Shown piece after piece: positions 4,680-21,229 of a stretch of 23,417 nt of DNA. Below the pieces are notes generated by a model. The model did not search any database. It had not been told where the DNA came from and saw only the letters and a program-made list of their open reading frames with translations. Position 1 is the stretch's first letter. Each line of letters opens with the position of its first letter. The translations under genes and the position numbers were made by a program. The DNA is taken from assembly GCA_036825435.1 (NCBI GenBank), contig DAISYG010000025.1, positions 1-23,417 of the forward strand, written 5' to 3'. The stretch comes from Casimicrobiaceae bacterium (GTDB lineage: Bacteria > Pseudomonadota > Gammaproteobacteria > Burkholderiales > Casimicrobiaceae).

Positions 4680-5960
4680 ATGAACCCCACCACCATGCAG
4701 ATTATCGCCACGACGCTTTTTGGTCTGGCGGTCATCCATACATTCTCATCCAGTTTCATTGCGGGTCTGGGACATCGCTTCCCGGTGCACGCGGGAATGT
4801 GGCATCTGCTGGGTGAGGTCGAGGTTGTTTTCGGCCTGTGGGCAGGCGTCATGATGGTGGTGATGTTCATTCACCTCGGCAACAAGGAAGCGCTTGCCTA
4901 TATCGAAGGGCGTAACTTCACCGAACCGCTGTTCGTGTTCTCGATCATGGTGGTGGCGGCGAGCCGTCCGATCACGCGGTCGGTGCGAGACGTAGTGCGC
5001 TGGCTGGCGAGAAAATTATCAAAACCGCTACCATTGGAAGAATCGCTAATCCTTTATTTTTTGACAATGTCGGTGATTCCGCTGTTCGGTTCATTCATCA
5101 CCGAGCCTGCGGCGATGACTCTGGCGGCATTGATGTTGCGCGACACATTTTTATCGCAAGCGATGCCCGCGCGCGTGAAATACCTCACGCTCGGCGTATT
5201 GTTTGTGAATATTTCCATCGGCGGCGCGTTAACGCCTTACGCAGCACCACCCATTCTGATGGTCGCCGGTCAGTGGAATTGGGATTTGACCTTCATGATC
5301 ACCACATTCGGCTGGCGTTCTCTGATTGCCGTCATTCTGAACGCGTTGATCGTCAGCTACATTTGCCGCAAAGATATTCCGCGCCACGCAACCATCGTGA
5401 TCTCCAAGGAAACGCACATTCCGCTGATCATCACCATCATCCATTTCATTTTTCTCGCCGCGATTGTTGTCTTTGCGCATCATCCGGTTATTTTCATTCC
5501 GCTCCTGCTGTTCTTTCTGGGTCTCGCCGCCGCCTACCCGCAGTTTCAGAACCGCATGATGATGCTACGCGAGAGCATGCTCGTCGCGTTCTTCCTCGGT
5601 GGCTTGGTCGTGCTTGGCGGCATGCAGGCTTGGTGGCTTCAGGATGTTCTTGGCGGCATGTCACCACAGGCATTATTTTGGGGCGCGACGGCTTTGACCG
5701 CGATCACCGACAATGCGGCGCTGACGTATCTCGGCTCATTGGTGGAAGGCACCGACGCCGCGTTCAAATATTCGCTGGTGTCCGGCGCGATTGTCGGTGG
5801 TGGTTTGACCGTCATCGCCAACGCGCCCAACCCTGCCGGTATCGCCATTCTGAAAAACCGTTTCGAAGACGATTCTGTCAATCCGTTAAAACTTTTCCTG
5901 GCCGCACTTGGTCCCACATTATTAGCCGCCATCATGTTTCTCCTGCCGTTCGGGCGGTAA
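4680..5960 (+). CDS. Polytopic inner-membrane transport protein (about 11-12 predicted TM segments). I assign it to no family; it may be an ion-transporter/permease.
   Basis: 426 aa and extremely hydrophobic throughout, with conserved-looking segments TEPAAMTLAALML and AITDNAALTYLGSLVEGT. SD AAGG upstream. The numerous overlapping ORFs in other frames are artefacts. Confidence 0.7.
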   Translation: MNPTTMQIIATTLFGLAVIHTFSSSFIAGLGHRFPVHAGMWHLLGEVEVVFGLWAGVMMVVMFIHLGNKEALAYIEGRNFTEPLFVFSIMVVAASRPITRSVRDVVRWLARKLSKPLPLEESLILYFLTMSVIPLFGSFITEPAAMTLAALMLRDTFLSQAMPARVKYLTLGVLFVNISIGGALTPYAAPPILMVAGQWNWDLTFMITTFGWRSLIAVILNALIVSYICRKDIPRHATIVISKETHIPLIITIIHFIFLAAIVVFAHHPVIFIPLLLFFLGLAAAYPQFQNRMMMLRESMLVAFFLGGLVVLGGMQAWWLQDVLGGMSPQALFWGATALTAITDNAALTYLGSLVEGTDAAFKYSLVSGAIVGGGLTVIANAPNPAGIAILKNRFEDDSVNPLKLFLAALGPTLLAAIMFLLPFGR

Positions 5961-5984: not shown

Positions 5985-8270
5985 ATGTCCAACGAAAATT
6001 TCCGTAAAGCTGCGCTTTTCTACCACCGTCAACCCACCGCCGGAAAAATTGAAGTCGTGCCCAGTAAAGCGCTGGTCACACAACGCGATCTGGCGCTCGC
6101 GTATACGCCCGGTGTCGCTGCCGCGTGCGAAGAAATCGTGCGTGCGCCGGAAGAAGCGCGTACGCTCACCGCTCGCGGCAACCTGATCGCCGTGGTGACC
6201 AACGGCACCGCCGTGCTCGGCTTGGGTAATATCGGCCCGCTCGCGGGTAAGCCTGTGATGGAAGGCAAAGCCGTGTTGTTCAAAAACTTCGCCGGTGTCG
6301 ATTGTTTCGATCTGGAACTGGACGAACCCGACCCGCAAAAAATGGTGGACATGATCTGCGCGATGGAGCCGACCTTCGGCGGCATCAATCTGGAAGACAT
6401 CAAAGCGCCGGAGTGTTTCTACATCGAAGAGCAATGCCGTCAACGGATGAAGATCCCCGTTTTTCACGACGATCAGCATGGCACGGCGATTATCGTCGGC
6501 GCTGCAATCATCAACGGTTTGCGCGTGGTGGAAAAAGATATCAAGGATGTGCGCATCGTCTGTTCGGGCGCCGGTGCGGCGGGCTTGGCGTGTCTGAAAA
6601 TGCTTGAACTGTTGGGTGCAAAAAAAGAAAATATTTGGTTGTGTGATATTCACGGTATCGTGTATGAAGGACGCACTGTCGACATGAATCCGCTGCGCGA
6701 ACATTATGCGCAGAAAACCGATAAACGCACGTTGCAGGAAGCGCTGGATGGCGCAGATGTATTCCTCGGTTTATCGGCGGCGCGCGTCGTGCAAAAGGAA
6801 TGGTTGCCGACGATGGCGGAAAAACCGCTCGTGTTTGCGTTGGCGAATCCCGAGCCGGAAATTCTTCCCGAATTGGTGAAGGAAGTGCGCCCCGATGCGG
6901 TGATCGCCACTGGGCGTTCCGATTACCCCAATCAAGTCAACAACGTTTTGTGTTTTCCGTTCATTTTCCGTGGTGCGCTCGACGTCGGCGCCACGCAAAT
7001 CAACGATGAAATGAAAATTGCGTCGGTGTACGCCATTGCCGACTTGGCGATGGCCGAGCAATCCGACATCGTTGAAGCGGCATACAACATCGAAGACCTC
7101 AATTTCGGTCCCGAATATTTGATTCCCAAGCCGTTCGATCCGCGCTTGATTCTGCAAATTGCGCCAGCAGTCGCCAAGGCTGCGATGGATACCGGCGTCG
7201 CCACACATCCGATTACCGACTTCGAAGCGTATCAAGAGAAACTGCTCGCGTTTGTTTATCACTCCGGCTTCATGATGAAGCCGGTGTTTGACGCAGCACG
7301 CGCAACACGTCGTCGCATCGTGTTGGCGGAAGGCGAAGAAGAACGCATGTTGCGCGCCGCGCAAATCATCCGTGACGACAAGATGTGCGACCTGACGCTG
7401 ATCGGTCGCACCGAAGTGATCGAACGTCGCATCAAACGCCTCGGCTTGCGCATTCGTCCCGGCAAAGACTTCGAAATCATCGATATTGAAAAAGACAAGC
7501 GCTTCGATGAAATCTGCGAAGAATATTATTCATTGACGCAACGCAAAGGCGTCACACCCGCCTATGCCAAACTGGAAGTGCGTCGTCGCCCGACGCTGAT
7601 CGGCTCAATGGCAATCCGACGCGGCGAAGCAGACGGCATGGTCTGCGGGCTGGTCACCGAATACATGCGTCATCTGCGCTATATTGATCAGATCATTGGC
7701 GCCAGACCCGGCGTCAAAACCTACGCGGCAATGAACGCCGTGATGCTGAAAAACCAAACCCTGTTCATCACCGACACCTACATCAACCGCGAACCAAGCG
7801 CCGAAGAGTTGGCGGAAATCACGTTGATGGCGGCCGAAGAAGTGCGCAGTTTCGGCATCGAACCCAAAGTCGCGCTGCTCTCGCATTCAAATTTCGGCAC
7901 CAGCGATTGGCCAACGGCGAAAAAAATGCGCGACACGTTGACGCTGGTGCAACAACTCGCGCCCGATCTCGAAATCGAAGGCGAAATTCAGGGCGATGCC
8001 GCGCTCAGCGAAGAAGTGCGCGCACGCGTTTTCCCCAACGCCCGTATCTCGGGTGCGGCCAATTTGTTGGTGATGCCCGGCATCGACTCTGCCAACATTT
8101 CATTCAATCTGTTGAAAATTACCGGTAGCAGTAATGTCACGATTGGTCCGGTTCTGCTCGGCGTCAGCCGCCCCATTCATATCCTGACGCCGTCCGCCAC
8201 GGTGCGCCGCATTGTCAACATGGCGGCACTGGCCGCCGCACAGGCTAATCTTCACGCAGAATTCAATTGA
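5985..8270 (+). CDS. maeB: NADP-dependent malic enzyme (malate dehydrogenase, oxaloacetate-decarboxylating). The malic-enzyme domain is fused to a C-terminal phosphotransacetylase-like domain.
   Basis: Collinear with E. coli MaeB over the full length. Examples: [76 protein letters not shown]. The ORF track starts at TTG 5973, but the ATG at 5985 ([11 protein letters not shown]) aligns with the MaeB N-terminus. Confidence 0.95.
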
Positions 8271-12500: not shown

Positions 12501-13364
12501 TTATTGTAGTCCATCCGAATATAAATGTACGGTTTCCCGCAAAAAGTGATCCAGTTCCTCGACGTTCTTGTGCTCCATTTTCTGCTCAAAATCATTTGAA
12601 GCAAGGCGATTCAGTTCCTGCTCGATAAATGCATGGATACCCGGCCAGCGCTCACTGTATTCCGCTTCACCGGAACGCATTTTAATATCCAGCAGACGAT
12701 TGATTTCATCAAGCAGCGCCGGATCGTCCAGCGTACCAACAGCAAGATCGGCAAAGCGCATCGGCGGCTGGCCTTGACGGGTTTCAATCCAGCGTACCGC
12801 CAACAGCGGGCGCAAAACATACAGATATTTTTTCAGGCGCACCTGATCATCTTGCAAATAGCCACGAAAATTGCTTTTCGCCATCGTCAGATAATGGTGG
12901 TAGCCCTTCAACGATGAAAAATGCGTCTGCGCCAATACGCGCAACCGCCGAACCGTTTCCGCTTCTTCGCGGTAAACAACCGGCGAATCGAGCCATTCCA
13001 GCAACACCGGATTGGATCGCAACAATAACTGCAACGTCTTGCGCAGTTCCCAACCATTGATATCAAGCGCATCATCAATGGGCAATTCGATGACATCGCG
13101 CTGAGGTTCAACCGACAGATACCATGGCAAACGAGGCACATAGATGAAGCGTACATCGTAATCGCTGTCCGGTGATGCAAAGCCCCAGGCACGGCTTCCC
13201 GATTCACAGGCATAAAGGATCGTGACCTCGTACTTTCGTTCGATGCCCTGCAATGATTGCACGATGGCAGCACGTACGTTTTCATCAATGGGATGATTGC
13301 TTGATATTTTCGGGTTCATTTGCCTGACCGTTTCTTCATTTGTCTTCTTCACCCTTTCACACAC
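12501..13364 (-). CDS. Pol-beta-superfamily nucleotidyltransferase, RtcB-associated. It is the last gene of the rtc operon.
   Basis: 287 aa. Nucleotidyltransferase motif YACESGSRAWGFASPDSDYDVRF (GS...DxD). The start overlaps the rtcB 3' end by 16 nt (GTG at 13364). An alternative ATG at 13319 would give 272 aa. Confidence 0.75.
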   Translation of the reverse strand: MCERVKKTNEETVRQMNPKISSNHPIDENVRAAIVQSLQGIERKYEVTILYACESGSRAWGFASPDSDYDVRFIYVPRLPWYLSVEPQRDVIELPIDDALDINGWELRKTLQLLLRSNPVLLEWLDSPVVYREEAETVRRLRVLAQTHFSSLKGYHHYLTMAKSNFRGYLQDDQVRLKKYLYVLRPLLAVRWIETRQGQPPMRFADLAVGTLDDPALLDEINRLLDIKMRSGEAEYSERWPGIHAFIEQELNRLASNDFEQKMEHKNVEELDHFLRETVHLYSDGLQ

Positions 13365-14581
13365 ACCACCTGCCGCAACGTATGCACCACTTCGACCAGC
13401 GAATGCTGCGCATGCATCACGGCGTCAATATCCTTGTAGGCCATCGGAATCTCGTCGATCACATCGCTGTCCTTACGGCACTCCACATGCGCCGTCGCAC
13501 GAACCTGATCGTCCACATTGAAACGACGCTTGGCCTCGTTGCGGCTCATCACCCGCCCTGCACCATGGCTGCACGAACAGAATGATTCCTCATTACCAAG
13601 ACCACGAACAATATAACTTTTGGCGCCCATGGATCCGGGGATGATACCCAACTGCCCCTTGTATGCCGACACCGCACCTTTGCGGGTAACCCAGATGTTC
13701 TCACCGAAGTGCGTTTCGCGCTGTACGTAGTTGTGGTGGCAGTTTACCGCCCCCCTATCGGTGGCAAACGGTTTGGCGATTGATGCCCGTACTGCGCTGA
13801 CCACGTTCGCCATCATCGCATCACGGTTCCGACGCGCATAATCCTGCGCCCAACCCACTGCCTCAATGTAATCATCGAAGTACTCGCTGCCTTCTTCAAA
13901 ATACGCAAGATCACGATCGGGCAGATGGATCATGTGTTTTTCCATGTCCTTTCTCGCCAGATCGATAAACAGCGTACCGATGGCATTGCCCACACCGCGC
14001 GAACCCGAATGCAGCATCAACCAGACACGCTCGCTCTCATCCAGACATACCTCGATAAAATGGTTGCCCGTTCCCAGCGTTCCCAGGTGTTTATGGTTGT
14101 TCGTGTTTTTCAGGCACGGGTATTTTTCGGTGATGCGCTCGAACCCGGGCAGCAACGCCGTCCACATCGCGTCAACGTTCTGCGGCGTATCGTGCCACGA
14201 CCCTTTATCACGCTTGCCCCTTGATACTTCACGCCCATGCGGTACCGCTTTTTCAATCGCGCAACGCAATGCATACAGGCTATCCGGGAGGTCGGAAGCC
14301 GTCAGCGTGGTGCGCGTTGCCATCATGCCACAACCGATATCCACACCGACTGCCGCCGGGATGATCGCAGCCTGCGTCGGGATCACACTGCCGATGGTCG
14401 AGCCCTTACCGAGATGCACGTCCGGCATGACCGCCAGGTGATGGAAGATGAATGGCATCTGTGCCGTCGCCAGCAATTGTTTGCGCGCGCCATCCTCCAC
14501 CGGCACACCCTGCGTCCACATTTTGATTGCCGCGCTGCCTTCCTGTTCAATAATGTTGTAGTCCATTTTCACTTCATTCAT
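13349..14581 (-). CDS. rtcB: RNA 3'-phosphate/2',3'-cyclic phosphate ligase RtcB (RNA-splicing ligase)
   Basis: 410 aa. The N-terminus MNEVKMDYNIIEQEGSAAIKMWTQGVPVEDGARKQLLATAQMPFIFHHLAVMPDVHLGKGSTIGSVIPT is collinear with E. coli RtcB. Metal-binding NCHHNY and the GMP-histidine motif CSHGAGR are present. The start overlaps the upstream Zn-ribbon gene by 8 nt. Confidence 0.95.
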   Translation of the reverse strand: MNEVKMDYNIIEQEGSAAIKMWTQGVPVEDGARKQLLATAQMPFIFHHLAVMPDVHLGKGSTIGSVIPTQAAIIPAAVGVDIGCGMMATRTTLTASDLPDSLYALRCAIEKAVPHGREVSRGKRDKGSWHDTPQNVDAMWTALLPGFERITEKYPCLKNTNNHKHLGTLGTGNHFIEVCLDESERVWLMLHSGSRGVGNAIGTLFIDLARKDMEKHMIHLPDRDLAYFEEGSEYFDDYIEAVGWAQDYARRNRDAMMANVVSAVRASIAKPFATDRGAVNCHHNYVQRETHFGENIWVTRKGAVSAYKGQLGIIPGSMGAKSYIVRGLGNEESFCSCSHGAGRVMSRNEAKRRFNVDDQVRATAHVECRKDSDVIDEIPMAYKDIDAVMHAQHSLVEVVHTLRQVVCVKG

Positions 14582-14939
14582 TGATTATCTTTCTTTCCAT
14601 CTTTTTCATTTTTCCTGCTTCACTGATTCTACGTGCCTCGGCTTTCCGTTGTCGTTCCTTTGCACGACAAGCCCGGCAACGCACTGCGATCGAGTCAGGA
14701 TTTCCACGCATTTGCTCATACCAGCGCTTCCGCCGTGCGGCATACCAGATTTCCTCTTTTCCACAATCCTTGCAAGTGAACGGAAAATCTTCATAATAGC
14801 CTTCGGGAAAACGCATCGACAGAACCCATGCATCCCAGGGATCCAATCCTTCGGTATTTACCGGTACCCGCTGATGATTTTTCTCCAGAAAACTTTTCTT
14901 TCTTTGCTTTCTGGCGGATACTTTTTTCTTGATACTCAT
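14574..14939 (-). CDS. Small basic zinc-ribbon protein (two CxxC pairs), translationally coupled to rtcB.
   Basis: 121 aa from ATG 14939 (MSIKKK...), with a GGGAG SD 5 nt upstream. The ORF track starts at 14957. Motifs FTCKDCGKEE and VRCRACRAKE form a C4 zinc ribbon. The termini are lysine/arginine-rich. I recognise no family. Confidence 0.6.
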   Translation of the reverse strand: MSIKKKVSARKQRKKSFLEKNHQRVPVNTEGLDPWDAWVLSMRFPEGYYEDFPFTCKDCGKEEIWYAARRKRWYEQMRGNPDSIAVRCRACRAKERQRKAEARRISEAGKMKKMERKIINE

Positions 14940-15074
14940 CATCGCTCCCAAAATCACATGTCAGAGAACAGGCATCAGACATCAGTAAAAGTATCTCTTC
15001 GCTCTGACTGAAAAACTTCTATCTCCGATCAAGCCCAAAAGTTTCCTTGTTCTCCGCAACATCCAAAATATCGG

Positions 15075-15220
15075 CGTCATTCCCGCGCAGGCGGGAATCC
15101 AGCCCACATTGATCAATAAAGATCATCCCGCCATTTCGGATTACCTTTTCGATAGCGCACAATTTCCACCGACCGTTTCCACAATCGTTTTTCTGGATTC
15201 CCGCCTGCGCGGGAATGACG
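15075..15220. repeat. Small MITE-like element. Perfect 26-bp terminal inverted repeats, each containing a dRS3-like ATTCCC-N8-GGGAAT hairpin, flank a 94-bp core.
   Basis: 15075-15100 CGTCATTCCCGCGCAGGCGGGAATCC is the exact reverse complement of 15195-15220. Each arm is itself a hairpin (CCCGC-gcag-GCGGG). It lies in the 340-nt gap between the SPFH gene and the Zn-ribbon gene. The architecture resembles neisserial dRS3/NIME repeats. Confidence 0.55.
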
Positions 15221-15299
15221 CCACAATGTTGGAGAAGCCTTCTGCTCTTCGCTCTCTGTCATCTGTAGCAGGGGAGGCAAATTCCTCCCCTACCATCCT

Positions 15300-16550
15300 T
15301 TAACCAGCCTTCAGCGACACCAGACCATTCAACACCTGATCCAGGCCACCCACCACCGAAATGCGGTCGATCCGTTCGGCCACGCGCTCCAGGGTTTCCA
15401 GTTCCTTGAGGCGCAACGCCACCGGGTTGTCTTCCATCACCTTGGCGGTATTGAGCAGCGAACGTGTTGCGTTGGTTTCTTCACGACGGCGGATCACGTT
15501 GGCTTCCGCCACTTTCTGCGCTTCCACCACGCGGGCAAGAATATCCTTCATCTCGCCCGGCAGCACGATATCGCGCACGCCGAGGCTCATCACTTCAAGA
15601 CCAAAACCTTCCAGTTTGGTTTTCAAATGTGCGCTGACCATCTCATCAATACTCTGCTTGTTTTCAAGAATCGCATCGAGCGTACGCGTACCCACTGCCG
15701 CACGCAAACCGAACTGCAATTCGCGGTACAAGTATTCAACCGGCTTGTTGACCTGCGCAAACGCCAGTGCCACATCGGTAAAGCGCCAGTTGGCCACCAG
15801 CGTCAGACGCAAACCAACGCGATCCTTGGTCAGGATTTCCTGACCGCTGACCTCCATCGCCTGCAAACGCGTATCCACCAGTTCAAGTTGCACCTCACGG
15901 TTGAAGCGCCAGAATGCACGCAAGCCGGGCGACAACAATTGCTCCACCTTGCCGTCGATGCGCAACACACCAACATGGTACGCGGGCACCTGCGCGACCA
16001 ACACGCCGTCCAGACCGATCACCGCACGGTTTTTCAGGTTGGCCGCGTTGAGCTGCTTCGCCACCTTTTCGGGCAATTCGGTATGGTCTTCCAGCTTGAA
16101 ACGCTCCAAACGGTGCTGCTTCAAACCTTTCCAGACATAGTGCCGTGCGCCCGGTGCCAACACCTCAACAAGGATATCGTTCTCAAAACGCAAACCTGTT
16201 TCATTTTCTTCCAGCACCATGGTGATGAAATGTTCTTCCGCAACCTGCGGATCATTCATCAGCAAATATTCCACCACATGATTTGCATGCATCACGCTGT
16301 CCTGTACGCAATTGCCCATCGTCCGTCTTTTCAGCGGATCGAACAGCCAATAGCGGCCAGGCGCAAGAATCCGTTCAAAATCGTCATCACGAAACAAAGT
16401 GCCCTTTTCGTTGTGCTTCACAACATATCTTTTGAAAAACAACATATTCATTCTCCCATCAATCGCCAACCTGTCGCCGGTTCGACGGACTTCCTTCTCG
16501 GCACCTGCGAGGAGGCTCATCACAAAATCCATGTTCATCTGGCAGCGCAC
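15300..16550 (-). CDS. SPFH/band-7 (stomatin/HflKC-like) domain protein. It has an uncharacterised N-terminal domain of about 170 aa and no TM anchor. It is the first protein gene of the RtcR-controlled operon.
   Basis: 416 aa. The C-terminal half carries the SPFH signature: VLRIDGKVEQLLSPGLRAFWRF...ILTKDRVGLRLTLVANWR...LGVRDIVLPGEMKDILARVVEAQKVAEANVIRRREETNATRSLLNTAKVM. I see no hydrophobic helix. The start is uncertain, with several in-frame Met in the first 11 codons and no clear SD. Confidence 0.75.
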   Translation of the reverse strand: MRCQMNMDFVMSLLAGAEKEVRRTGDRLAIDGRMNMLFFKRYVVKHNEKGTLFRDDDFERILAPGRYWLFDPLKRRTMGNCVQDSVMHANHVVEYLLMNDPQVAEEHFITMVLEENETGLRFENDILVEVLAPGARHYVWKGLKQHRLERFKLEDHTELPEKVAKQLNAANLKNRAVIGLDGVLVAQVPAYHVGVLRIDGKVEQLLSPGLRAFWRFNREVQLELVDTRLQAMEVSGQEILTKDRVGLRLTLVANWRFTDVALAFAQVNKPVEYLYRELQFGLRAAVGTRTLDAILENKQSIDEMVSAHLKTKLEGFGLEVMSLGVRDIVLPGEMKDILARVVEAQKVAEANVIRRREETNATRSLLNTAKVMEDNPVALRLKELETLERVAERIDRISVVGGLDQVLNGLVSLKAG

Positions 16551-16698: not shown

Positions 16699-16789
16699 GC
16701 TTTGGAGCGGGACTTGAACCCGCGACAGACCGATTCCTCGTCGGTTACTCTATCCAACTGAGCTATCCAAATACGGGATTCGAACCCAT
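16699..16789 (-). ncRNA. tRNA-like element (tRNA mimic or pseudo-tRNA) in the leader of the rtc operon. A 74-nt cloverleaf is preceded by an extra T-arm-like hairpin.
   Basis: Minus strand: ATTTGGA-TA-GCTC-AGTTGGATA-GAGT-A-ACCGA-CGAGGAA-TCGGT-CTGTC-GCGGG-TTCAAGT-CCCGC-TCCAAAG-C. The D-arm, T-arm, U8, G18G19 and C48 are canonical. The anticodon loop has G33 and anticodon AGG. The acceptor stem has an A1xG72 mismatch. No CCA is encoded. Immediately 5' of it (16773-16789) lies ATGGGTTCGAATCCCGT, a second T-arm-like hairpin. Confidence 0.5.
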
Positions 16790-17216: not shown

Positions 17217-17360
17217 ATAAATCGCTGACGCTGAAAATAACTGCAAGTCTTTGTATTAACAGATATAAAATTTTTTCATGAGTTTCTGCTATCAAATTTC
17301 CCCATTCATTTTTCTATTTTTGCTAGAATATTTGATATATTTTTATATAAAATGATAATC

Positions 17361-18950
17361 ATGAAGAAGACGGTGGTCATCGGTTTTCTCGGCACGCAGC
17401 TCGACAATGGCGGACGCGGCAGCGACCGTTGGAAAAAATGGCGCCCCAGCATCGCCATCTGCCAGCAGGAAAATCTGCCCGTACATCGGATTGAGTTGAT
17501 TCACGATGCACGCAGCCGCAGTCTGGCGGGGCGCGTCGCCGAGGACATCGTTTCGGTATCGCCACACACCGAGGTGCGGCACATCGAAAAACAATTACGC
17601 GACCCCTGGGACTTTGAAGAGGTCTATACGCTGTTGCTTGATCTGGCGCGCTCGTACCCGTTCGACACCGAAAACGAAAACTATCTGATTCACATCACCA
17701 CCGGCACGCACGTCGCGCAGATCTGCTGGTATCTGCTCACCGAAGCACATTATTTTCCAGCGCAACTGTTGCAGGCATCGCCACCACTCAACCGTAAAGG
17801 CGTGCTCGACCGTGCAGGCACGCATGCGATTATTGATCTGGATCTTTCCCGCTACGACAAAATCGCACAGCGTTTTCGCGTCGAGCAAGCCGATACCGTC
17901 AGCCGCCTCAAGTCCGGCATTGCCACACGCAACCCCGCGTTCAATACCATGATCGAACGCATTGAGCGGGTGGCCGGACGTTCGCGCGCGCCGATGCTGC
18001 TGGTCGGCCCCACCGGAGCGGGCAAATCATTCCTCGCGCAACGCGTTTATGAATTGAAACGTGAGCGACAACAACTCAAAGGCCGCTTCGTCGAAGTCAA
18101 CTGTGCCACGCTGCGCGGAGATGCTGCGATGTCGGCATTGTTCGGCCACGTCAAAGGCGCGTTTACCGGCGCACAGTCGGAACGCGCCGGGTTGCTGCGC
18201 TCGGCGCACGGCGGCGTGCTGTTCCTCGACGAAATCGCCGAACTGGGACAGGACGAACAGGCGATGCTGCTCAAGGCCATTGAGGAAAAACACTTTCTTC
18301 CGTTCGGTGGCGACAACGAGGTCAGCAGCGATTTCCAACTCATCGCCGGTACGCACCGCGATTTGAGGCAGCGCGTTCGTGAAGGACTTTTCCGCGAAGA
18401 TTTGTACGCCCGCATCAACCTGTGGACGTTCACCCTGCCCGGTCTTGCCAAACGCACCGAAGATATCGAGCCGAACCTGGATTACGAACTTGAGCGTTAC
18501 GCATGCGATTACGGTGTACAGGTTCGCTTCAATGTCGAAGCGCGCCGCCATTACCTGACATTCGCCTGCTCCACCGAAGCGCAATGGCCCGGCAACTTTC
18601 GTGAATTGACTTCCAGCGTTACCCGCATGGCAACGCTATCGACGGGTGGGCGCATCACCGAGCAAGATGTTCTCGATGAAATCGCCCGTTTGCGCGAAAG
18701 CTGGCACGAGCCTGCCCGTGCGGATCAGGTTGCCGTCGTGCTGGGCGATGCTGCACAGACCATCGACCTGTTTGACCGCTGCCAGCTCAATACCGTACTG
18801 CGGGTTTGCCACGACAGCCGAACCCTGTCAGAAGCCGGACGCACCTTGTTCGCTGCGTCGCGTCAACACAAAAAACAAACCAATGACGCCGACCGCCTGC
18901 GCAAATATCTGCTGCGCTTCGGACTGGATTGGGAGGCGGTACATCGGTGA
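17361..18950 (+). CDS. rtcR: RtcR: sigma54-dependent transcriptional activator with an N-terminal CARF domain, an AAA+ domain and a C-terminal HTH.
   Basis: The N-terminus MKKTVVIGFLGTQLDNGGRGSDRWKKWRPSIAICQQ...YLIHITTGTHVAQICWYLL is collinear with E. coli RtcR. Walker A GPTGAGKS. Sigma54-interaction motif GAFTGA. The ORF track starts at 17352 (MIIMKK...). 17361 matches the E. coli start and gives 529 aa. Confidence 0.9.
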   Translation: MKKTVVIGFLGTQLDNGGRGSDRWKKWRPSIAICQQENLPVHRIELIHDARSRSLAGRVAEDIVSVSPHTEVRHIEKQLRDPWDFEEVYTLLLDLARSYPFDTENENYLIHITTGTHVAQICWYLLTEAHYFPAQLLQASPPLNRKGVLDRAGTHAIIDLDLSRYDKIAQRFRVEQADTVSRLKSGIATRNPAFNTMIERIERVAGRSRAPMLLVGPTGAGKSFLAQRVYELKRERQQLKGRFVEVNCATLRGDAAMSALFGHVKGAFTGAQSERAGLLRSAHGGVLFLDEIAELGQDEQAMLLKAIEEKHFLPFGGDNEVSSDFQLIAGTHRDLRQRVREGLFREDLYARINLWTFTLPGLAKRTEDIEPNLDYELERYACDYGVQVRFNVEARRHYLTFACSTEAQWPGNFRELTSSVTRMATLSTGGRITEQDVLDEIARLRESWHEPARADQVAVVLGDAAQTIDLFDRCQLNTVLRVCHDSRTLSEAGRTLFAASRQHKKQTNDADRLRKYLLRFGLDWEAVHR

Positions 18951-20781: not shown

Positions 20782-20906
20782 GTTATGTTCATCCAGTAAT
20801 AACAAGGAGGATTATACTCCATATGACGCCCGAGCGACGTTCTGCGCCGTGTCGGTTCGTATTATAAGCCAGATAAACCGCAAAAAAACGTGCCATTTAT
20901 GGAGGA

Positions 20907-21229
20907 TGGTGGGCCCCCTGGGAGTCGAACCCAGCACCAACGGATTATGCGTCCCACTACGGCTTTCACCGCCCCTTTCGGGTTTGTAGGCTGGACTGTC
21001 TCTTGTCTTTACGACTCGCCCGTTCAGTCTCTACACCTTCCCGCCGTTTGCGGCGGGCTTGGCTCGGGATTGCCACGTGTCGGCCACAGAGGGTTCCCCG
21101 AATTTGAGCGATTCTACGACGACGCAGAGTGAACTTACCTCGCCGCAACCCAAAAACAGCGCCATGCGGTGAACGTTTAGGCGCTGTTCGTCAAGTCCGC
21201 TGCTCTAACCATGCATGAGCTAGAGGCCC
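20907..21229 (-). tRNA. tRNA(CAU) gene (tRNA-Ile2/Met-like) interrupted in the anticodon loop by a group I intron of about 244 nt. The exons are 21229-21194 and 20949-20907.
   Basis: 5' exon (minus strand): GGGCCTC-TA-GCTC-ATGCATGGTTA-GAGC-A-GCGGA-CT. 3' exon: CATAA-TCCGT-TGGTG-CTGGG-TTCGACT-CCCAG-GGGGCCC-A-CCA. Joining them gives a 79-nt tRNA with a 7/7 acceptor stem (one G-U pair), a canonical D-arm and T-arm, and anticodon loop CUCAUAA. It is overall very similar to E. coli tRNA-Ile2 (ileX). The 5' exon ends in U and the intron ends in G, as group I splicing requires. Confidence 0.75.
20950..21193 (-). ncRNA. Group I self-splicing intron (subgroup IC3-like, the Azoarcus/cyanobacterial tRNA-intron type). 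It has no ORF.
   Basis: The intron (minus strand) contains TCAAATTCGG, GGCAAT...CCGAGCCAAGC and GAAGGTGTAGAGACTGAACGG. These correspond to the conserved J3/4-P4, P6-P7 and J8/7-P7 core segments of the Azoarcus tRNA-Ile intron. A P2-like hairpin ACAGCGCC...GGCGCTGT sits near the 5' end. The terminal nucleotide is G. The exact splice junctions are provisional. Confidence 0.75.

Follow-up and report, generated by a model that had tools for sequence, protein, structure and literature searches.

Four classical classes of bacterial tRNA introns, Leu.3Ug, Arg.5Ug, fMet.2Ug and Ile2.5Ug, were all assigned to group I subgroup IC3, and 17 new classes were added, for a total of 5292 split tRNA genes across about 80,000 genomes; the seed alignment of that survey contains Gba28.Ile2.2Ug and Sba135.Met.2Ug (Williams 2020, bioRxiv 10.1101/2020.01.27.920355). 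Insertions at position 33/34 were reported to be common in tRNA-fMet, and Table S5 of the same report lists 'Ile2 (CAT) 33/34 ... IC3' introns of 243-244 nt from the Acidobacteriota assemblies GCA_016700075.1 and GCA_016700175.1 (mSystems 2026, PMC13011429). In the present analysis, positions 1 to 23,417 of contig DAISYG010000025.1 from a Casimicrobiaceae bacterium (the whole stretch, called the window below) were found to contain a split tRNA(CAU) gene on the reverse strand. The gene was read as a functional split tRNA-Ile2 gene with an IC3-type group I intron, free of an open reading frame (ORF), between U33 and C34, belonging to the class Ile2.2Ug / Ile2 (CAT) 33/34, and a probability of about 0.92 was given to this reading. 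Introns at 33/34 had been seen before in CAU tRNAs, and the class of IC3 introns at 33/34 of tRNA-Ile2 is already on record; the window gene contributes a new sequence to a class that is both known and common. A preliminary description of the locus had taken the insertion after U33 to differ from the published tRNA(CAU) introns, which does not hold, as the classical fMet.2Ug introns occupy exactly this site and Ile2 33/34 introns were already listed.

The intron mode of ARAGORN, applied to the locus, was found to return a single tRNA(CAU) of 79 nt, in which ggacT and Cataa border an intron of 244 nt. The spliced product formed a perfect cloverleaf with the anticodon loop CUCAUAA and an encoded CCA end. 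The 5' exon contained the 5' strand of the acceptor arm, the D-arm with an 11-nt D-loop and the 5' strand GCGGA of the anticodon stem, followed by C32 and U33. The 3' exon started with the anticodon CAU (20949-20947) and the nucleotides A37 and A38, followed by the 3' strand UCCGU of the anticodon stem, the variable loop, the T-arm, the 3' strand of the acceptor arm, the discriminator A and the encoded CCA. The junction U33|C34 (ggacU|u...g|Cauaa) was the sole U/G combination that yielded a 7-nt loop, and removal of the intron restored the canonical loop and the cloverleaf. The extent 20907-21229 given in the preliminary description was exact, the feature lying on the reverse strand, and its account of two halves 244 nt apart on the same strand, a joined loop CUCAUAA, a 79-nt tRNA, a 5' exon ending in U33 and an intron ending in G was reproduced by ARAGORN in intron mode and by inspection of the sequence. 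The locus was detected only with the intron mode of ARAGORN and the E-value mode of Rfam; when ARAGORN was run with its default settings and Rfam with the gathering cut-offs, nothing was returned at 20907-21229 and the window showed three other tRNAs only. By such default scans the genome would appear to be without the essential AUA-decoding tRNA-Ile2.

The insert is, to judge from its sequence, a group I intron of the IC3 type. The Rfam family RF00028 (Intron_gpI) was found to match end to end at 20969-21165 of the reverse strand with 32.5 bits and an E-value of 2e-6 (Rfam E-value mode, 751-nt region). A second covariance model, R1, was built on 44 intron cores (J3/4 to P7', alignment A2) taken only from other tRNA-intron classes, namely those of tRNA-Leu, Arg, fMet, Thr, Phe, Lys and Ser and the Azoarcus-type Ile2. 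The search of the whole 23.4-kb window with R1 gave one match, at 20993-21106 of the reverse strand, with 95.4 bits and an E-value of 2.3e-23. Together with blastn matches to homologous split genes with E-values as low as 5e-66, these values place the match far beyond chance. A catalytic core P3-P8, with the P4-P6 domain and the guanosine-binding helix P7, was recovered by RF00028, by R1 and by covariation. The core strings TCAAATTCGG, CCGAGCCAAGC and GAAGGTGTAGAGACT, quoted in the preliminary description, were all found on the reverse strand of the insert, and its identification of an IC3-type group I intron in a tRNA(CAU) gene was supported by both covariance models. The subgroup was assigned by homology, because the insert shared 71-74% identity with introns that Table S5 of PMC13011429 lists as IC3 and because R1 was derived from classical IC3 classes. 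The minimum free energy fold of the single sequence was uninformative, with z = -1.7, and did not reproduce the group I fold.

Among the known systems compared, the window intron was closest to the published Ile2 (CAT) 33/34 introns, with 71-74% identity over the full length. The two were found to share the U33|C34 site, U-1, the terminal guanosine (omega-G), a near-equal length, the guide GGGUUGC, a P9 of three-way form and a short P8 whose loop is GUAAA, and by similarity also the host tRNA type; they differed in the P2 loop and in P5a, and the window host was of the betaproteobacterial and not the acidobacterial type. The cyanobacterial tRNA-fMet intron (fMet.2Ug) occupies the same site in the same loop CU|CAUAA and shares the architecture, including the P9 domain and a P1 extension whose loop is of the UAAACG type, whereas its host is the initiator, its guide GGGC pairs with exon GGCU and its P8 is longer. 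Some fMet introns were reported in the cited literature to carry an endonuclease gene, which the window intron does not. The tRNA-Leu(UAA) intron (Leu.3Ug) of cyanobacteria, plastids and proteobacteria contained the same IC3 core and P9 architecture as the window intron but lies in another tRNA, at U34|A35.

The Azoarcus-type intron (Ile2.5Ug) is inserted in what is, by similarity, the same tRNA species, and the core strings CAAAUUCGG, CCGAGCCAAGC and GAAGGUGUAGAGACU were common to both. It differs in its 36/37 site, the 5' exon end CAU, the guide GUG, a length of 205 nt and the lack of a P1 extension and a three-way P9. The 5' exon of the window gene ends in ...GGACU and its anticodon lies in the 3' exon. 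The identity of the window intron to the Azoarcus sequence was 56% over the full length, and among the matches listed the identity of the core to the window reached 0.85 for Ile2.2Ug and 0.78 for tRNA-Leu, followed by about 0.70-0.73 for fMet.2Ug and 0.63-0.64 for the Azoarcus type. The close likeness to the Azoarcus intron noted in the preliminary description was retained for the shared core and not beyond it, the Azoarcus type (36/37) being the least similar of all classes compared. A move of the intron from tRNA-fMet had been considered because the site and the loop sequence are shared with tRNA-Ile2; such an origin was unsupported by the core identities (0.73 for fMet against 0.78 for tRNA-Leu). 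An Azoarcus intron that had slid along the loop was likewise rejected, as that class was the most distant.

The host was identified, with moderate to high confidence, as tRNA-Ile2 (CAU). In tRNA-Ile2, C34 of the CAU anticodon is converted to lysidine, by which AUA is read. In a blastn search of all complete E. coli genomes, the best full-length matches of the spliced sequence were all annotated as tRNA-Ile genes with a CAT anticodon (ileX type), with 77-81% identity. The published Ile2 (CAT) 33/34 genes have exactly the anticodon arm of the window gene, GCGGACU/CAUAAUCCGU (PMC13011429). The tRNA was of the betaproteobacterial type, with 79 nt and the unusual D-loop AUGCAUGGUUA, and 74 of its 79 nucleotides (94%) were identical to the tRNAs of Neisseriaceae bacterium TC5R-5 and of the metagenome-assembled genome (MAG) 'Comamonas sp. 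lk'. The host was found to contain G1-C72 and the anticodon stem GCGGA/UCCGU, unlike the initiator tRNA at 685-761, and was therefore not regarded as an initiator. The preliminary description had left the host as tRNA-Ile2/Met; the Ile2 type was upheld by similarity and the initiator was removed from the choice.

A reading of the host as an elongator tRNA-Met(CAU), which would make this a 'Met.2Ug' gene with an otherwise identical intron and mechanism, was considered unlikely. Such a class exists, with one intron in the Williams seed set, and ARAGORN labels all CAU tRNAs as Met. The E. coli matches and the anticodon arm given above both point away from it. The pairs C4-G69, C5-G68 and G27·U43 were also visible in the host; such pairs are determinants for TilS, and their presence is a lead towards tRNA-Ile2. 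The only other CAU tRNA in the window was the initiator tRNA-fMet at 685-761 of the reverse strand, which is intron-less and contains C1xA72 and a GGG/CCC anticodon stem; it is no substitute for tRNA-Ile2.

The structure of the window intron was modelled by homology with P1, the P1 extension, P2-P5, P5a, P6, P6a, P7-P9, P9a and P9b, and all 73 modelled pairs in 14 helices were found to be standard. In the covariation alignment A1 (MAFFT), which contained the window intron and 28 homologues, 88.8% of the cells were paired, against 31-43% when the 3' partners were slid by 1-3 columns. Changes on both sides were found in 36 pairs, and the observed covariation score was reached by none of 500 shuffles. 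The helices P2, P3, P4, P5, P6a, P8, P9, P9a and P9b were found to covary and P7 was invariant. The window intron retained 106 of the 111 columns that were invariant in the 28 relatives, and the five departures came from three complete base-pair swaps, two of which lie in P3 and the third in P9. Since these departures were all compensatory and the other invariant columns were kept, the window ribozyme appears to be under selection and not a relic; the intron is apparently intact and the split gene apparently functional.

Several points weigh against a functional split tRNA-Ile2 gene. Splicing and catalysis were read from the RNA architecture, and the score of RF00028 lies below the family gathering score of 50. 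The Rfam group I seeds include no bacterial sequence, and cut-offs of about 18-20 bits were used for tRNA introns in the published survey (Williams 2020, bioRxiv 10.1101/2020.01.27.920355). The scan upstream of the split tRNA found no promoter-like site. As 23 kb of genome are in view, a second, intron-less tRNA-Ile2 gene may be present elsewhere. The choice of Ile2 over elongator Met was made by sequence similarity together with the putative TilS determinants. The inferred state of splicing, the missing promoter call and the 23-kb view would also suit a decaying, splicing-dead intron in a tRNA pseudogene, with an intact tRNA-Ile2 gene elsewhere doing the work. This was regarded as very unlikely, given the standard pairing throughout, the compensated departures, the intact P7, J8/7 and omega-G, and a perfect cloverleaf with an encoded CCA.

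The preliminary description had found no clean P1 by eye. A 7-bp P1 was found to be formed in which U-1 pairs with G44 as a U·G wobble, and the 5' splice site falls between 21194 and 21193. The U·G pair and the four exon pairs of P1 were each kept in 29 of the 29 homologues. The guide covaried with its exon context, the fMet introns containing exon GGCU with guide GGGC (G-3:C) and the Ile2 introns, including that of the window, GACU with GGGUU (A-3:U). The P1 extension sits between the two strands of P1, and its counterparts in relatives and in fMet introns were found to contain a CCUAAA(G/C) loop; the MAFFT alignment was loose over this element, with 68% of the cells paired.

The P1 extension resembles a terminator by its stem and U-run and is yet part of the P1 domain. 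An intrinsic terminator or attenuator at 21189-21149, in which termination against intron folding would set the output of tRNA-Ile2, was considered highly improbable. In the window copy the 10-bp GC-rich stem is indeed followed directly by UUUUU. The terminator scan made no call on this hairpin, owing to its 16-nt loop, and the U-run was not conserved, as the homologues contained AUGGGUU, UUGGGUU or AAGGGUU after the stem; the U/G stretch is also the guide needed for P1. A (two-piece) transfer-messenger RNA (tmRNA), with its tRNA-like end in the 3' part and an unrelated fragment upstream, a first impression already dropped in the preliminary description, has a chance close to nil, because the beta_tmRNA match was weak (8.7 bits, E 2.5, where the gathering score is 84), the ARAGORN tmRNA search was empty, the two halves complete the cloverleaf of one tRNA and the split architecture recurs in at least 95 homologous loci.

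For the split tRNA-Ile2 gene the following course of splicing is proposed. The exons and the intron would be transcribed as one precursor RNA, and the intron would fold into the P1-P9 architecture that covariation supports. Exon nucleotides G30-U33 and intron nucleotides 1-3 pair with the guide UUUGGGUU, and this P1, with U33 in the U·G wobble, would present the 5' splice site. An exogenous guanosine bound at P7 would attack after U33, as in the established group I mechanism, followed by entry of the terminal G244 into the same P7 site and attack of the 3'-OH of U33 before C34, which would ligate the exons with the loop CUCAUAA. A short P10 could form in the second step between CAUAA of the 3' exon and the U-rich stretch at the 5' side of the guide, and the ligated exon junction is expected to read ...GGACU-CAUAAUCC. 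Formation of lysidine at C34 by TilS would have to come after splicing, because the intron abuts C34. The features of the gene are collected in Table 1, in which position p of the intron is found at window coordinate 21194 - p.

Table 1. Features of the split tRNA-Ile2 gene, followed by other features and by groups of compared loci (numbers with L).
Feature	Position or loci	Strand	Basis or remark
Split tRNA(CAU) gene	21229-20907	-	ARAGORN intron mode and sequence
5' exon, 36 nt, GGGCCUCUAGCUCAUGCAUGGUUAGAGCAGCGGACU	21194..21229	-	ARAGORN intron mode; sequence
Intron, 244 nt, UGACGAAC...GUAGUGGGACG	20950..21193	-	group I, IC3-type
3' exon, 43 nt, CAUAAUCCGUUGGUGCUGGGUUCGACUCCCAGGGGGCCCACCA	20907..20949	-	ARAGORN intron mode; sequence
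P1 5' strand, exon G-4 A-3 C-2 U-1 and intron U1 G2 A3	21191..21197	-	7/7 pairs standard
P1 extension hairpin, 10 bp, 16-nt loop UAAACGUUCACCGCAU	21154..21189	-	structure model; homologous hairpins
Guide UUUGGGUU region, intron 41-47, P1 3' strand	21147..21153	-	pairing in window and homologues
P2 hairpin, 8 pairs, conserved loop UAAGUUCACUCUG	21116..21146	-	92% of cells paired; double changes in 6/8 pairs
P3 5' strand, partner 21016-21021	21106..21111	-	100% paired; compensatory in 4/6 pairs
P4-P5-P5a-P6-P6a domain, including UUCGGGG / UCCCGA and GCC...GGU	21035..21101	-	A1 helices 4-9; R1 alignment
P7 5' strand G(A)GACU, pairs with 20993-20997 (AGUCC), guanosine-binding helix	21026..21031	-	invariant 29/29
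P3 3' strand GGGCGA	21016..21021	-	A1 helix 3
P8 short hairpin GUC-GUAAA-GAC	21005..21015	-	100% paired; compensatory in 2/3 pairs
P7 3' strand AGUCC	20993..20997	-	A1; R1
P9 three-way domain: P9 CCUA/UGGG, P9a CCC-GAAA-GGG, P9b GCGGU-GAAA-GCCGU	20953..20990	-	97-100% paired; compensatory changes
Terminal guanosine (omega-G), 3' splice site directly after	20950	-	sequence; invariant 29/29
Neighbours of the tRNA-like element at 16699-16772	12501-16550	-	
Neighbours of the tRNA-like element at 16699-16772	17352-18950	+	
Long introns, 635-705 nt	L125, L135, L154, L158, L165, L179, L189, L198, L210, L231, L236		
Long introns, 561 nt	L132/L143		
'tRNA-His(atg)' calls, re-read as tRNA-Arg(CCU) interrupted after its anticodon, and 'tRNA-Ile(tat)' calls, re-read as tRNA-Leu(UAA)	L008, L047, L055, L069, L102, L119; L072, L106		

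The shared core pattern was found at at least 120 loci of many phyla when contigs of one genome per species were scanned, and the hosts, as called by ARAGORN among the matches listed, were mostly tRNA-Leu(UAA), tRNA-Arg(CCU) and CAU tRNAs. A metagenome scan for the intron 3' end followed by an Ile2-type exon pattern (...GCATAATC) also gave at least 120 loci, and uniform re-splicing of these metagenome loci yielded at least 95 genes of the tRNA-Ile2 type with the intron at U33|C34. The Ile2 33/34 class is common in environmental bacteria. The preliminary description had called such introns rare and patchy, which is at odds with both scans and with the published total of split tRNA genes. The window gene adds one diverged sequence of the betaproteobacterial type to a class that was documented mainly from surveys, and it leaves the knowledge of group I introns and of tRNA processing unchanged.

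The closest relatives of the window gene among the matches listed were the loci L226, L167 and L197, with 77-79% identity over the whole split gene and about 72-73% over the intron (blastn); the window intron was about 27% diverged from its closest homologue among them. The mature tRNA of L226, which contains a 33/34 intron, was identical in 79 of 79 nucleotides to those of L096 ('Comamonas sp. lk' MAG) and L120 (Neisseriaceae bacterium TC5R-5), which contain a 36/37 intron. Synteny was found between the flanks of L096 and the flanks of L197 and of L167, both with a 33/34 intron, at 77% amino-acid identity over 474 residues (tblastx). In this comparison set, 33/34 introns and Azoarcus-type 36/37 introns seem to alternate at what looks like one orthologous tRNA-Ile2 gene. 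A repeated and independent invasion or replacement of this one gene by two unrelated IC3 introns, in the lineage with the D-loop AUGCNUGGUUA, was given even odds; within that scenario, and at the same even odds, the window gene would be a diverged member of the 33/34 set in a lineage with an unusual tRNA-Ile2.

In the long members of the Ile2 33/34 family (560-705 nt), the strand opposite to the tRNA was found to contain an ORF of about 121 aa, which has the motif CxxC...HH...CxxCH. A Pfam search of these antisense ORFs gave HNH families only below threshold (E 0.02-0.06), and the ORF may encode a homing endonuclease. In the 244-nt window intron no homing-endonuclease ORF was found, the sole ORF being a mechanical one of 60 aa with a TTG start that overlaps the ribozyme core. 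These features suggest endonuclease-driven homing in the family and a window copy that has lost the endonuclease gene; because its intron contains no endonuclease gene, the window copy is probably inherited vertically and no longer mobile. If the tRNA gene was indeed invaded repeatedly, the antisense HNH-like ORF may be what drives invasion by the 33/34 family.

The window flanks were found to contain rpiA upstream of the split gene and an ArsR-family regulator and AhpC downstream (Pfam); a DD-carboxypeptidase and RtcR also belong to the flanks. Apart from contigs of the source metagenome itself (JGI 3300000059), no synteny of these flanks was found with any of 240 loci compared, and no orthologous locus of the window organism, intron-less or intron-bearing, was found among them. 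On the reverse strand the encoded CCA is directly followed by UCCUCCAUAAAUGGCACGUUUUUUUGC (20880-20906), a weak hairpin with seven U nucleotides behind it. Transcription of the tRNA possibly terminates there; the terminator scan made no call at 20880-20906.

Another tRNA-like element was found at 16699-16772 of the reverse strand and was called 'tRNA-Pro(AGG)' by ARAGORN, with an Rfam tRNA score of 46.5 bits. It was atypical, with the loop CGAGGAA (G for U at position 33), a mismatched first acceptor pair and no encoded CCA. The element stands at the head of a reverse-strand operon (Band_7/SPFH, zf_Tbcl, RtcB, RlaP), and the gene for RtcR, a sigma-54 activator, points the opposite way. A tRNA-like RNA with a link to this RNA-repair operon is one possible reading, and the arrangement is reminiscent of YrlA/rtcBA. 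No Rfam match of the Y-RNA type was found for the element at E<=1.

The intron mode of ARAGORN often misplaced the junction in the compared loci, and such calls were re-read. The 'tRNA-Ile(tat)' calls were found to be tRNA-Leu(UAA), whereas the 'Leu(caa/taa)' and 'Pro(cgg/tgg)' calls of many of the metagenome loci L124-L243 were tRNA-Ile2(CAU) with a 33/34 intron. In L068, a contig of a MAG labelled Methanosarcinaceae archaeon (JAIPUR010000020.1), the bacterial-type IC3 core pattern was found at 1640-1676 of the reverse strand, where the ARAGORN search for a surrounding split tRNA was negative; the case could be one of mis-binning or of a host other than a tRNA. Similar cases were suspected to be mis-binned (Williams 2020, bioRxiv 10.1101/2020.01.27.920355). 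The locus L022 was found to contain two copies of the core pattern about 500 nt apart on opposite strands, at 5630-5665 (forward) and 6135-6169 (reverse), one of which was resolved as a split tRNA-Leu(UAA).

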